This document shows, in pieces, positions 2,719 through 5,989 of a stretch of DNA of 5,989 bases; within the stretch, counting starts at the first letter, position 1; each line of letters opens with the position of its first letter. Below the pieces are notes generated by a model, which saw nothing but the letters and a program-made list of their open reading frames with translations, searched no databases and was not told the DNA's origin. Location: the IMG/VR virus record IMGVR_UViG_2563366803_000001; one strand, 5' to 3'. Source of the stretch: a virus (Duplodnaviria; Heunggongvirae; Uroviricota; Caudoviricetes). Both the position numbers and the translations under genes were made by a program.

Positions 2719-2794
2719 GCCGATATAGCTCAGTTGGTAGAGCAGCGCATTCGTAATGCGAAGGTCGTAGGTTCGACTCCTATTATCGGCACCA
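2719..2794 (+). tRNA. thrW: tRNA-Thr, anticodon CGT, 76 nt with encoded CCA
   Basis: 7-bp acceptor stem gccgata/tatcggc, D-loop agctcagttggtagagc, anticodon loop ttCGTaa, T-arm ggttcgactcc, discriminator A and genomic CCA (2792-2794). Confidence 0.92.
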
Positions 2795-2808: not shown

Positions 2809-3972
2809 TTACACATCATTAGTACCTTCCTTATTTTTTGACTGGGACAAATTTGGGACCGATGGGTTCAGGATCGAGTCTATTTGCCGTGCGTGTTCGG
2901 TAAGGTGATTAGGTGCAAGGTGAGCATATCGACGAACCATTTCGATAGACTCCCAGCCTCCCATTTCCTGTAACACTGACAACGGGACTCCGGCTTGAAC
3001 CAGCCAACTTGCCCAGGTGTGTCTCAAGTCGTGAAATCTGAAATCATCAATACCAGCCCGTCTCAGCGCCGCTTTCCAGGCTGTGTTTGCGTCATACCGC
3101 ATCTTCCTTACTGTTGGCGCTTTCGTTCCGTCTGGTTTGGTACAGCTTTCCTTGTACACAAATACCCAACGGTGATGATTCCCGATTTGTTTTTTCAATA
3201 CGCGACATGCAGTATCATTCAGCGCAACGCCAATTGCGCGGTTTGATTTACTCTCTTCCGGGTTTATCCATGCCACCCGGCGCTGCATATCTATTTGTTG
3301 CCATTCAAGGTTGATGATGTTCGAGCGTCTTAAGCCTGTTGCCAGTGCAAATTCAACAACAGACTTTAATGGCTCCGGACATTCATCAATCAGCCTTTGT
3401 GCTTCATGGGGCTCCAGCCAGCGGATCCGTTTATTCTTTGGTTGAGGCACTTTAATAATTGGTGCCTTATCCAGCATTTTCCATTCACGCTCTGCGGCTC
3501 TTAGTAGGGCCTTTATAAATGAAAGATGCGTAGCCTTCGTTGCAACGGACGCTGGTTTTGGCGTGTATTCTGGAACAGGTTTCCCTTTTTTTCTGCATGC
3601 TTCTGCCCTGAGTTTCCAGTTTTCCTCATGACGCCGGTTCGTCATTTTCTGCATTGCTGAATAAATTTTTGATTCAGTAATGTCTCTTAGTTGCATTCCT
3701 GCGAAATGTTGAAGCCAGAATCCGATCCGGCTTTTGTCATCGTCCAGTGATTTTTTATGTGCTTTCTCTTCAAGCCACCTGACACATGCTTCCTCGAACG
3801 TTATATCAGGTATTTCACCAAGTTTACTGACCCGCCATGCTTCAGCCTTTAGCTTGTCATGGAGTTCTGTCGCCTGCCTTTTGTCCTTTGTTCCAAGAGA
3901 CTTTTTAAATCTTTTACCGTTCGGCAATGTGAAACTGGCGTACCATATTTCACCTCTGCGGAAGAGTGACAT
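2809..3972 (-). CDS. int: Phage tyrosine integrase (site-specific recombinase), 387 aa, P22 Int-like
   Basis: C-terminal catalytic signature [40 protein letters not shown] (HxxR ... Y) and an upstream R in ATGLRRSNI. The N-terminus [22 protein letters not shown] matches my recollection of P22 Int. Shine-Dalgarno GAGGAAA precedes the ATG at 3972. Confidence 0.93.
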
Positions 3973-4199
3973 TTTCTTTCCTCTGTTATGCCATCACCCG
4001 CGCTCACCTGGACAGTATGCAGCGGAGACTGAAGAGCCGCAATGCAGGCTTGTCGTGTTGTGAGGTAAGGAGATTTATTCTTAGTGGGATCTTTGCGTGT
4101 TGCCTGAAGACGCCCTGTGCGTATCCAGTTAATAGCAGTCGGTCTGGATATCTTGAGAAAATGACAGGCCTCATCGAGTGTGAGGCTGTATGGCTCCAT
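3849..4199 (-). CDS. xis: Excisionase, 116 aa, P22 Xis-like
   Basis: Starts at the internal ATG 4199-4197 ([32 protein letters not shown], helix-turn-helix-like), preceded by a strong AAGAGGTG Shine-Dalgarno. The ORF-track start at 4283 has no such site. The 116-aa length matches recalled P22 Xis. The 3' end overlaps int by 124 nt in another frame. Confidence 0.8.
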
Positions 4200-4543
4200 T
4201 ATTTCACCTCTTGCTGTGACATTGTTGAAAAACGGATACCAGCTCGTTGCTGCCAGACGATCCAACCGAGAGTCATATCCCATGCCATGTATTCGTTATC
4301 GCCGTTTTTTGCTCTCCGACGATCGACTGTTTTACCGAAACGCTTTTCCATAAATAATTCATAGGCTGCGCGTTCATCTGGCTCAACTTCCAGAGATGCC
4401 AGTGCAATCCGTGCCAGTTCTAAATCATTTTCAAGCTCAGCGCGAATCTCAGCGAATGCACTCTGTGTTAAGGCGAACTCAATGCTCTGCACTTTATTCC
4501 GTGCGCGCTCAAGCAGTGCATGGTAGTTAATTTCGGTTGTCAT
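4199..4543 (-). CDS. Hypothetical prophage early-left protein, 114 aa, unknown function
   Basis: Good GAGG Shine-Dalgarno about 9 nt upstream of the ATG at 4543. Its start overlaps the stop of the upstream gene (ATGA, 4540-4543) and its TAA stop overlaps the xis ATG (TAATG, 4197-4201). Charged N-terminal half that looks helical by eye; no motif I recognise. Confidence 0.6.
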   Translation of the reverse strand: MTTEINYHALLERARNKVQSIEFALTQSAFAEIRAELENDLELARIALASLEVEPDERAAYELFMEKRFGKTVDRRRAKNGDNEYMAWDMTLGWIVWQQRAGIRFSTMSQQEVK

Positions 4544-5418
4544 ACCCCTACCTCTTCGAATTCCAATTCCAATTGATCACCCCAGATTTCACATGACTCT
4601 GAACACGAACCGGTATCGAATCGCCTGGCCTGTACCATCGCCTGATACAAATTTCTGTAGTCGCTGTTGGCAGACATTCTGGCAATTCCGTCAAGCGTCA
4701 GGTGACCACGGTACATAATGTCTTTACCTGTTCTGCGATGACCATCCCTGACGTGTTTGCCTGTAACCAGCTCATTAAAAACTCGCATCAGACCTGGTTC
4801 GTCTTTACATGCAAGCCCCAGCTTTTGCGTTGACTTTTTGATGCAGAAAACACAGTTCCCGAGATGCTCCGGGATTTGCAAATCAAAAGGTTGTTTTCGC
4901 CACCACCGGATAACATCCGACTTATCAAAATCTGACAGCTCGGCAAGATACCGGACGCCCGATTTCGGTTTCAGCCTACGGGGTTCGTCTGCACGAATAC
5001 CCAGCCATGTGATGTAATTACCTCGCCCGAAATGGTTATCGCAGTATTTCGTGAAAGGGATGAGTTTTAGCCTGTCAGTACAGAACGCGCCGCCGATGTA
5101 TGGCGTGCCGTACTTTTTAACCATGTCCATAAACGGTTTAAGCACCGGCATTCGTGTCTGAATATCCTTTGGCTCCCATTCTGTATAACCATTTGGCTGC
5201 CCAAGCTCAGGATTTATATCGACCTGTAACACAGTTAGTGGTATGTCCCAGAACTTTACAACCTCCCGGATAAAGCGGTATGTCAGCGGATGTTCGCAAC
5301 CGGTATCCATAAAGATGTAGCAGACGTTATTGCCAGCCTTTCTTTGTTCTTCCATCAGGTGAACAAGATATGCGGATGTTCTCCCGCCAGAAAAACTAAC
5401 TACATGAGTTATGCACAT
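4540..5418 (-). CDS. PAPS-reductase-like PP-loop ATP pyrophosphatase family protein, 292 aa
   Basis: N-terminal PP-loop motif VVSFSGGRTSAYL (SGGxxS type), as in the CysH/CysD/DndC family. Cysteine motifs NCVFC and C-terminal CSESC. Start ATG 5418-5416 overlaps the 3' end of the HD-domain ORF by 10 nt. Confidence 0.8.
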   Translation of the reverse strand: MCITHVVSFSGGRTSAYLVHLMEEQRKAGNNVCYIFMDTGCEHPLTYRFIREVVKFWDIPLTVLQVDINPELGQPNGYTEWEPKDIQTRMPVLKPFMDMVKKYGTPYIGGAFCTDRLKLIPFTKYCDNHFGRGNYITWLGIRADEPRRLKPKSGVRYLAELSDFDKSDVIRWWRKQPFDLQIPEHLGNCVFCIKKSTQKLGLACKDEPGLMRVFNELVTGKHVRDGHRRTGKDIMYRGHLTLDGIARMSANSDYRNLYQAMVQARRFDTGSCSESCEIWGDQLELEFEEVGV

Positions 5419-5766
5419 TTGCGTAATTCAGATAACTCGTTGAAGCGTTCCATAAACATCCCGTAGGCATGGCCCGGTGCCAGTGGAATAACTTTGAACA
5501 TCTCTGTTGCCGGGATACCTTCCAGTACAGGCCATAAAGAGCCATCATCAAGCCCGAGATCACGGCGTTCGGTTGCCAGCATAATGAGATCGGCATATTT
5601 CACTGGCGTGCTCATAACAGGAGGTAACCCGTATTTCTCACGGATTACTGCATCTATTTTTTCTTCCATCCGTTTATAGTCAGGAAGAAGGCGTTTCAGT
5701 GGTGCGGGGATGTCCTGGCAATACGCTTCTGTTGCATCATGCATTAACGCTTCAAAAGCAAATTCC
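5409..5766 (-). pseudogene. C-terminal fragment (about 119 codons) of a YfbR/YfdR-like HD-domain 5'-deoxynucleotidase, N-terminus removed by IS2
   Basis: The frame is open from the IS2 junction. The motif ALMHDATEAYCQDIPAPLK matches the recalled YfbR metal-binding motif MYHDASEVLTGDLPTPVK, and the later VKYADLIMLATE resembles YfbR VKQADALCAYLK. The part upstream of the HD motif, about 55 residues including the first His, would lie beyond the IS2 end. Confidence 0.7.
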
Positions 5767-5807
5767 TGGATTTGCCCCTATATTTCCAGACATCTGTTAT
5801 CACTTAA
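5767..5807 (-). repeat. IS2 right terminal inverted repeat (IRR), about 41 bp
   Basis: Same sequence match as the IS2 feature above. The element boundary at 5766/5767 is set by where the recalled IS2 terminus ...CAAATCCA ends. Confidence 0.7.
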
Positions 5808-5989
5808 CCCATTACAAGCCCGCTGCCGCAGATATTCCCGTGGCGAGCGATAACCCAGCGCACTATGCGGATGCCATTCGTTATAATGCTCGAACGCCTC
5901 TGCAAGGTTCTTTGCTGCCGTTAACCCGTCTGGTTTGGGCATGATACTGATGTAGTCACGCTTTATCGTTTTCACGAAGCTCTCTGCTA
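5778..5989 (-). CDS. insD: IS2 transposase InsD (orfB), C-terminal 70 residues; 5' part outside the window
   Basis: The translation ...[68 protein letters not shown] matches the recalled IS2 InsD C-terminus. TAG stop at 5778-5780. The ORF is open to the window edge. Confidence 0.85.

Follow-up and report, generated by a model that had tools for sequence, protein, structure and literature searches.

The experimental data on the YfdT family come from one study of the Escherichia coli K-12 genes yfdQ, yfdR, yfdS and yfdT (Noguchi & Katayama 2016, PMC4776307). A multicopy fragment carrying all four genes suppresses hda-185 over-initiation and inhibits initiation at oriC both in vivo and in vitro, and yfdQ and yfdR in multicopy, combined with either yfdS or yfdT, inhibit DnaA-dependent initiation at oriC. 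YfdR binds domain I of DnaA, in which Phe46 is an important residue, and is a competitor of DiaA and DnaB. YfdQ, YfdS and YfdT did not bind strongly to DnaA or YfdR; YfdT, which was visible as a gel band when the K-12 genes were overproduced, did not co-purify with DnaA or YfdR in pull-downs. Cells lacking yfdQRST showed no replication phenotype, and the authors noted that the overexpression effect is possibly an artefact (PMC4776307). They discussed lambda P, SirA of B. subtilis and Dps as analogous DnaA inhibitors (PMC4776307). The protein described here may share a functional class with these three and YfdR, that of phage- or stress-encoded proteins lowering initiation at oriC; it has no sequence or fold relationship to any of them.

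Ea22, encoded in the exo-xis region of lambda and Stx phages, offers an analogy in how such a protein might work. Lambda Ea22 is thought to act as a coiled-coil scaffold with a swappable C-terminal domain (PMC10834534). Like our protein, Ea22 is encoded early-left and comprises a short N-terminal segment, a helical region and a small C-terminal domain. The solved C-terminal domain of lambda Ea22 is mixed alpha-beta (PMC10834534); for the YfdT core the prediction is all-alpha.

Proteins of lambdoid phages named DUF551 or Eaa/EaA, such as gp27 of mEp460 and gp05 of JLK-2012, open with a helical leader whose last residues are ...IALASLE, and the YfdT core comes next. Their N-terminal halves are 57–83% identical to our protein, and they are encoded in matching early accessory regions. 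They continue through linkers into DUF551 (PF04448) at the C-terminus, in some cases with additional modules, whereas our protein ends right after the core.

Prophage Setting

The window, meaning the whole 5,989-nt stretch of DNA that was analyzed, reads proB-proA-tRNA-Thr(CGU) and then enters a prophage lying on the minus strand. Its features around the ORF of interest are as follows.

2719–2794, plus strand: tRNA-Thr(CGU), the prophage attachment site, adjoining proA (tRNA and Rfam searches)
2809–3972, minus strand: tyrosine integrase gene (int), 387 aa (PF00589, E = 3e-48)
3849–4199, minus strand: P22-type xis, 116 aa (phrog_2907, E = 2e-50; HTH_17; 87% identical to P22 Xis)
4540–5418, minus strand: PAPS-reductase-family (PP-loop) gene, 292 aa (PF01507, E = 1.5e-8; phrog_424, E = 1e-90)
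5409 to about 5766, minus strand: 3' two-thirds of yfdR, for an HD-domain 5'-deoxynucleotidase (phrog_6402, phrog_318)
5767–5989, minus strand: end of an IS2 element, comprising its terminal repeat TGGATTTGCCCC... and the transposase C-terminus (boundary good to a few bases)

An Rfam search of the window returned the tRNA only. The int gene overlaps xis by 124 nt. A longer, 144-aa frame for xis (3849–4283) was rejected: it is the 116-aa form that matches P22 Xis, that PGAP annotates and that is preceded by a ribosome-binding site of its own. The PAPS-reductase-family protein matches SspD in PADLOC (E = 1.3e-14), and its gene fills the slot held in K-12 and SfV by yfdS (DUF551).

At the far end, the IS2 part is 99–100% identical to elements annotated as "IS3-like element IS2 family transposase", contains an ORF at 5778–5975 and reaches the end of the window. 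Homology to yfdR ends at window position 5768, which corresponds to position 10969 of locus L001, where the intact gene occupies 10610–11146; compared with the intact gene of E. coli 2014C-3075, about 59 N-terminal codons have been lost through IS2. Because yfdR is truncated in this way, the accessory cassette in this window is probably defective and not functional in this strain. In the intact relative, E. coli 2014C-3075, the order is yfdP-yfdQ-yfdR-PAPS reductase, then our gene, then xis-int, downstream of a LexA-like repressor region.

The prophage is an SfV-like lambdoid element with a P22-type integration module at tRNA-Thr(CGU). The first-pass annotation had placed the locus among P22-like prophages. 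That description suits int and xis, which are of P22 type, but the element is SfV-like and lambdoid overall, not P22-like throughout. Within the early-left "ea/exo-xis" accessory operon the 114-aa ORF comes last, and the integration module follows it directly.

Coding Status of the 114-Codon ORF

The ORF and its translation signals are located as follows.

4199–4543 including the stop codon, minus strand: variant yfdT allele (ORF and translation; K-12 YfdT match; phrog_660)
4550–4554, minus strand: GAGGT ribosome-binding site of this ORF, within the last codons of the PAPS-reductase-family gene (in AAGAGGTAGGGGTATGA)
4205–4210, minus strand: GAGGTG ribosome-binding site of xis, in codons E112-V113 of the ORF (in CAAGAGGTGAAATAATGG)

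The 114 codons run on the minus strand from an ATG at 4543–4541 to a TAA at 4201–4199. The sequence 5' of the start codon reads AAGAGGTAGGGGTATGA, and the GAGGT at 4554–4550 lies 6 nt from the ATG, which bears out the strong Shine-Dalgarno sequence seen at first reading. The overlaps with both neighbors also proved real. The ATG forms ATGA with the TGA of the PAPS-reductase-family gene (4542–4540), and one base is common to the TAA and the ATG of xis (4199–4197), giving the TAATG of CAAGAGGTGAAATAATGG. The ribosome-binding site of xis is thus coded by the near-terminal E and V codons of our gene (GAG GTG). Four-base ATGA and TAATG overlaps are the usual packing of phage operons, and the canonical yfdS-yfdT junction is likewise TAATG in DNA alignment. 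Since such packing is standard, the overlaps do not point to any particular functional partnership.

The ORF is clearly a genuine protein-coding gene, correctly delimited. A broken frame in related prophages had been named beforehand as the observation that would speak against it; the frame is uninterrupted in 78 of 80 related IMG/VR loci. The exact 114-aa protein is present on 553 contigs. Over the core codons, dN/dS was 0.12–0.13 against mEp460 and JLK-2012, at a dS of about 1.0–1.1, and 0.14–0.38 against closer alleles. The YfdT core is under purifying selection (dN/dS 0.12–0.38, dS up to 1.1).

The whole protein is 13 kDa and acidic, with a pI of 5.3, composed of an acidic N-terminal module (pI 4.6) and a mildly basic core (pI 8.4). 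A promoter and terminator scan of the coding (minus) strand found no internal promoter and nothing above shuffle expectation. The promoter scan picked up one weak antisense promoter-like site at 4331–4358.

A Variant Member of the YfdT Family

The protein almost certainly belongs to the YfdT family (K-12 b2363, SfV Orf28, phrog_660), as judged from sequence and gene order. It had been flagged as an unknown protein, and RefSeq labels it "DNA-binding protein"; it is in fact a homolog of a named K-12 protein and is now placed in this family. BLASTP against K-12 YfdT gave 81% identity over residues 36–114 (66/81 identical, E = 1e-48). The protein matches phrog_660 over residues 3–114 (E = 5.2e-23), and 124 of 135 related representatives match the same profile in the PHROG scan. 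An equivalent gene occupies the equivalent position in SfV (orf28), SfII, SfIV, PhiR29 and others. The order yfdP-yfdQ-yfdR-X-yfdT-xis-int recurs in E. coli 2014C-3075, SfV, K-12 and PhiR29_2 and in 80 IMG/VR loci.

The K-12 protein (b2363, YFDT_ECOLI, of CPS-53/KpLE1) and SfV Orf28 resemble ours in core, in tail and in PHROG family. Their genes, like ours, follow yfdQ-yfdR-X and lie directly before a P22-type xis or its remnant, and they use the same style of translational coupling; in our case yfdQ lies beyond the window. The differences are at the N-terminus and upstream of it. K-12 YfdT has 101 aa against 114 here, and roughly the first 45 codons belong to a different module, so that full-length collinearity does not hold and residues 1–35 do not align with K-12 YfdT. 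The upstream gene, as described above, is yfdS in K-12 and SfV and a PAPS-reductase-family gene here. PGAP gives our allele a name other than YfdT. Because its N-terminal module is a different allele, we regard the gene as a variant of yfdT and not as an orthologous copy.

The family is under-studied but common. The DNA from 4199 to about 4408, which covers the core, has a match in 1744 of 5426 complete E. coli genomes, about a third, nearly all at 90–95% identity; the usual annotation among the matches listed is "yfdT: protein YfdT". At least 80% of the ORF was matched in only 179 E. coli genomes.

We also considered homology between YfdT and YfdS and rejected it (E = 0.35). DUF551 (PF04448) is absent from our protein, which had no Pfam match at E ≤ 1 and no similarity to YfdS.

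Mosaic Construction

The comparisons show that the 114-aa protein is a mosaic of three parts: an N-terminal hairpin, a core of about 50 aa and a short tail.

4388–4543, minus strand: N-terminal module, residues 1–52, an acidic antiparallel helical hairpin (AlphaFold2)
4235–4384, minus strand: YfdT core, residues 54–103 (DERAAYELFMEKRFG to VDRRRAKNGDNEYMAWDMTLGWIVWQQRAG); the shared unit is about 52–105 (profile search, conservation)
4202–4234, minus strand: C-terminal tail, residues 104–114, predicted disordered (pLDDT < 50 for 106–114)

Two AlphaFold2 models placed helices at residues 2–27 and 31–52, forming a hairpin with a pLDDT of about 93. The N-terminal half had looked helical by eye, and the models agree.

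The allele-specific part comprises codons 1–45. The window tracks the PAPS-reductase gene of the Ss-VASD type through the ATG of our ORF and a few bases more; from codon 46 onward (ATT GCA CTG...) DNA alignment shows canonical yfdT, and the megablast match likewise begins at I46 (window 4408). Codons 1–45 are a third module, most similar (about 50% identity) to the N-terminal part of a DUF551 protein from Klebsiella aerogenes. When the first 55 residues were searched by themselves, nothing beyond fragments and a few relatives in Enterobacter and E. coli was recovered. At the other end, the tail varies with the type of excisionase gene downstream: ...STMSQQEVK precedes a P22-type xis and ...SLSTAQPQEGQQ precedes an AlpA-like xis.

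The variant N-terminus has a PAPS-reductase gene upstream in all 33 of its IMG/VR loci and appears in none of the 47 loci with yfdS, and the canonical N-terminus follows yfdS in 47 of 47. The gene is thus a conserved core with two flanking ends, each inherited along with its neighboring gene. Joints falling just inside an ORF are usual in lambdoid mosaicism. If the DnaA link is real, this natural swap of yfdS for a PP-loop enzyme together with a new YfdT N-terminus would amount to an experiment already set up for studying partner specificity.

A Portable Core

The core was searched for as a profile against 1.84 billion representative proteins (E ≤ 1e-3, clusters at 50% identity), and 368 clusters were found. 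Depending on the protein, which may be 46–448 aa long, it is N-terminal, internal or C-terminal, and it is usually bounded by proline-rich linkers. The near-invariant residues are E57, R58, E62, F64, D74, N80, G81, D82, Y85, A87, W88, D89, W94 and W97. AlphaFold2 modeled the core with moderate confidence (pLDDT 60–79) as a helix at 57–69, a loop with the RRAKNGD..Y motif and a helix at 88–101.

Pfam domains fused to the core among 135 representatives were DUF551 (21 proteins), Ead_Ea22 (3), dATP/dGTP pyrophosphohydrolase (2) and DUF5490 (1). The PHROG scan of these 135 relatives returned co-occurring families that were all of unknown function. The core itself has no Pfam model, and from its distribution it is an undescribed portable module, widespread in the accessory regions of enterobacterial prophages.

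Searches with the whole 114-aa protein against Pfam, NCBIfam and PADLOC gave zero matches, in keeping with the first impression that it carries no enzymatic motif. Phmmer with the protein, and the core profile, against PDB sequences found at best an unrelated oxidase (E about 7.6). The structure prediction and fold search proposed earlier yielded a helical model but no informative fold match: comparison with solved and predicted structures gave generic helical-hairpin matches and no specific fold.

Proposed Function and Alternatives

Our preferred reading, to which as a whole we assign a probability of about 0.5, is that this coding gene is a variant yfdT whose product acts as an adaptor. Taken alone, the claim that the protein is a non-enzymatic adaptor is rather probable. 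The claim that it specifically helps YfdQ and YfdR to inhibit replication initiation is less likely than not, yet in our analysis it is the single most likely mechanism.

Translation of the adaptor would be coupled between the PAPS-reductase-family gene and xis. The product would be an all-alpha protein in which the acidic hairpin serves as an oligomerization or partner-contact element, and the helix-loop-helix of the core, whose aromatic and acidic face is invariant, may form the target-binding surface. The disordered tail would mainly encode the ribosome-binding site of xis. By extension from the K-12 ortholog, the adaptor would act alongside YfdQ and YfdR once the prophage is induced, lowering DnaA-dependent initiation at oriC. 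Since K-12 YfdT did not bind DnaA in pull-downs, any role of YfdT would be auxiliary. It may be interchangeable with that of YfdS; YfdS itself matches PF04448, and since it is a DUF551 protein, the fusions of the YfdT core to DUF551 (21/135) agree with the reported interchangeability of yfdS and yfdT. The cassette here has no yfdS, so the variant YfdT would be its sole adaptor of this kind. The suggestion in the first-pass annotation that the gene might encode a regulator or inhibitor of host functions stands in outline, as it fits the inhibition seen with multicopy yfdQRST (PMC4776307). Should the DnaA link prove real, phages would be using YfdT-type proteins as one element of a strategy to stop host replication.

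The functional support for this mechanism is overexpression of the K-12 allele, from which the first 45 residues of our protein differ, and this counts against it. The distribution of the core also speaks against a tie to YfdQ and YfdR. It is present in Stx1a-converting phages and JLK-2012, none of which is listed among phage records with a YfdQ match. It is also present in the nin region of one Klebsiella prophage, where the 5 kb examined on each side contains neither yfdQ nor yfdR.

The main rival builds on that distribution. As the core is found in many phages that lack a YfdQ match, its primary role need not involve YfdQ or YfdR. A hairpin-driven oligomer could display the core to a host protein and bias phage development or host survival on its own, much as is imagined for Ea22. 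We consider this unlikely, and it is nonetheless the best of the alternatives. Beyond the many phages and prophage regions in which yfdQ and yfdR were not found, the core is the C-terminal module of Ead/Ea22-domain proteins in 3 of 135 representatives (P0183, for example), and the Ea22 literature describes a comparable architecture whose host ligand is unknown (PMC10834534). Residues 3–14 of our protein (TEINYHALLERA) resemble the N-terminus of the Ea22 family (SEINYQALREKA) at 8 of 12 positions. That resemblance is marginal, however, covering 12–14 residues with a pairwise E of 0.013–0.065; the Pfam Ead_Ea22 model (PF13935) does not match our protein, and experiments on the YfdT core are confined to the yfdQRST study. 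Membership in the Ea22 family was accordingly rejected, with no Ead_Ea22 match and only the 12–14-residue motif aligning.

We find it doubtful that the protein is a dedicated partner or regulator of the PAPS-reductase-family enzyme, with the hairpin docking on the enzyme and the core linking it to a target. The idea draws on the perfect linkage of alleles in IMG/VR (33/33 for the variant with the PAPS reductase, 47/47 for the canonical form with yfdS). The search of E. coli genomes agrees, the variant always adjoining a PAPS-reductase gene among the matches listed, and through the ATGA overlap the two proteins would be translated together and made in matching amounts. Such linkage is expected in any case, since recombination has joined the parts within the ORF itself, at codon 45/46. 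The enzyme also occurs without a YfdT-like neighbor: homologs 79–93% identical in Stx2a-type phages are followed by an unrelated 68-aa ORF, and those in nin regions adjoin a methyltransferase or NinB. Conversely, the hairpin about 50% identical to ours in K. aerogenes follows an Ea22-like gene and not a PAPS-reductase gene. Thus the linkage behind the earlier suggestion of a PP-loop cassette partner is real (33/33), but physical linkage explains it equally well. A dedicated partnership is weakly supported at best and an obligatory one can be set aside; the strict co-inheritance of hairpin and upstream gene is a modest remaining point of interest.

More speculatively, and with less probability still, the core may be a docking domain through which a variety of phage modules are brought to a single host target at or near the replication-initiation machinery, with the hairpin alleles encoding which partner is recruited. 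The fused modules would then be DUF551, the Ea22 coiled coils and the MazG-like dATP/dGTP pyrophosphohydrolase, and two unfused proteins, the HD-phosphatase YfdR and the PAPS-reductase-like enzyme, would be tethered as well. The 114-aa allele would plug in the PP-loop enzyme.

It is very unlikely that the protein is a regulator binding phage or host DNA through its basic RRRAKNG segment. PGAP names this allele "DNA-binding protein" and RefSeq and nr entries for many copies bear that name too, the core is mildly basic as noted above, and binding of oriC in vivo by one member of YfdQRST was left possible (PMC4776307). The PGAP name could be traced to no model, however, and the N-terminal search found no separate "DNA-binding" family. 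No helix-turn-helix or other DNA-binding family in Pfam or NCBIfam matched our protein even at E ≤ 1, and no fold match to a DNA-binding domain was obtained. The protein as a whole is acidic, and YfdQRST did not bind oriC tightly in vitro (PMC4776307). PADLOC returned no defense or anti-defense match for it.

The role proposed earlier as an excision accessory factor, aiding Xis and Int, is not supported and can be set aside as highly improbable, the distribution of the gene largely refuting it. The gene does lie directly upstream of xis, coupled to it through TAATG, and in SfV-like prophages it is always the last gene before the integration module. That much of the expected synteny with xis held up, but P22-type xis is found widely without it: P22 itself places eaC upstream of the gene for an 87%-identical Xis and lacks a YfdT homolog, and 159 phage records carry this Xis family against 36 with a YfdT-like sequence. 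Our protein matched neither HTH_17 nor TIGR01764, both of which match the neighboring xis. The variant allele precedes three types of excisionase gene or their remnants, namely P22-type xis (14 loci), a lambda-type xis/int (L020), an AlpA-like xis (L033) and xis remnants (4 loci). K-12 yfdT adjoins ypdJ, a dead xis remnant, and homologs containing the core lie far from xis, preceding an exonuclease gene in mEp460 and falling within the Klebsiella nin region.

Gene boundaries and exchange of the integration module

At both ends of the variant yfdT allele (4199-4543, minus strand), the C-terminus of one protein encodes the GAGGT ribosome-binding site of the next gene. The ending ..EEVGV of the PAPS-reductase-family protein encodes the site at 4550-4554, and the ending ..QEVK of YfdT encodes the one at 4205-4210. 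Many unrelated DUF551/YfdT-type proteins among the relatives have the C-terminal ending ..P(E/P)PQEV(K/N/Q), which suggests that a common gene-boundary sequence serves as a recombination joint.

The integration module downstream of yfdT differs among the related IMG/VR loci. At positions 4261-5726 of locus L020, a remnant of a P22-type xis start lies directly 3' of yfdT and is followed by a lambda-type xis and int beside ybhC, which shows that the integration module was swapped downstream of a fixed yfdT boundary. In L033 (4261-8066), the genes after the variant yfdT encode, in order, an AlpA-like excisionase, a 531-aa protein and an integrase in the opposite orientation. The 531-aa protein carries the cytidine/deoxycytidylate-deaminase zinc motif HAE...PCxxC and may be anti-phage deaminase cargo.

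In the window, xis also lies within a longer reading frame.

3849-4283, minus strand: longer xis-containing reading frame, 144 aa, overlapping the last 85 nt of the yfdT allele

This long form is the one annotated in the SfV GenBank record (147 aa there), whereas P22 Xis and PGAP have the 116-aa form, with its start codon in the TAATG.

The yfdT copy is damaged in 2 of the 80 related loci. In L043 the reading frame shifts after codon 19; in L035, a frameshift in the tail fuses the ORF to a xis remnant, giving 147 aa.

Cassette partners and state of the cassette

4540-5418, minus strand: PAPS-reductase-family gene, in the exact yfdS (DUF551) slot of K-12 and SfV

The best match of its product in the defence library was SspD (E 1.3e-14), with weaker matches to DndC and BrxP. 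Homologues were found in 588 phage records, some of them in the nin region beside a DNA methyltransferase. These matches and neighbours hint at a role in DNA modification, not sulfate assimilation.

In one relative (P0125), the YfdT leader and core are fused to a domain of the dATP/dGTP pyrophosphohydrolase type (PF04447, E 5e-43). The core is thus associated with enzymes that hydrolyse nucleotides in two ways, through this fusion and through the adjacent 5'-deoxynucleotidase gene yfdR.

5409-5989: region of yfdR holding an IS2 element, with the terminal repeat from about 5767 and the transposase C-terminus at 5778-5975

About 59 N-terminal codons of yfdR, which encodes an HD-domain, DnaA-binding protein, have been lost to IS2. 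Since the insertion splits yfdR and also cuts the genes downstream of it off from the early-left promoter, this strain probably has a defective cassette.

Features within the yfdT allele

4331-4358, plus strand: weak sigma-70-like site (TTTACC-16-AATAAT), antisense inside the ORF and not above shuffle expectation

The site lies about 130-160 nt upstream of xis, at a position roughly analogous to that of PaI, the antisense promoter within P22 eaC. No CII/C1-type repeat was seen.

Residues 3-14 (4502-4537), TEINYHALLERA, resemble the N-terminus of Ead/Ea22-like proteins, which in JLK-2012 reads SEINYQALREKA (8 of 12 residues identical, with a pairwise E of 0.013). This likeness could reflect common ancestry of the 5' ends or a constraint on translation initiation; a similar M-T-x-I-T-x-E-x-L motif begins several ea-region proteins.
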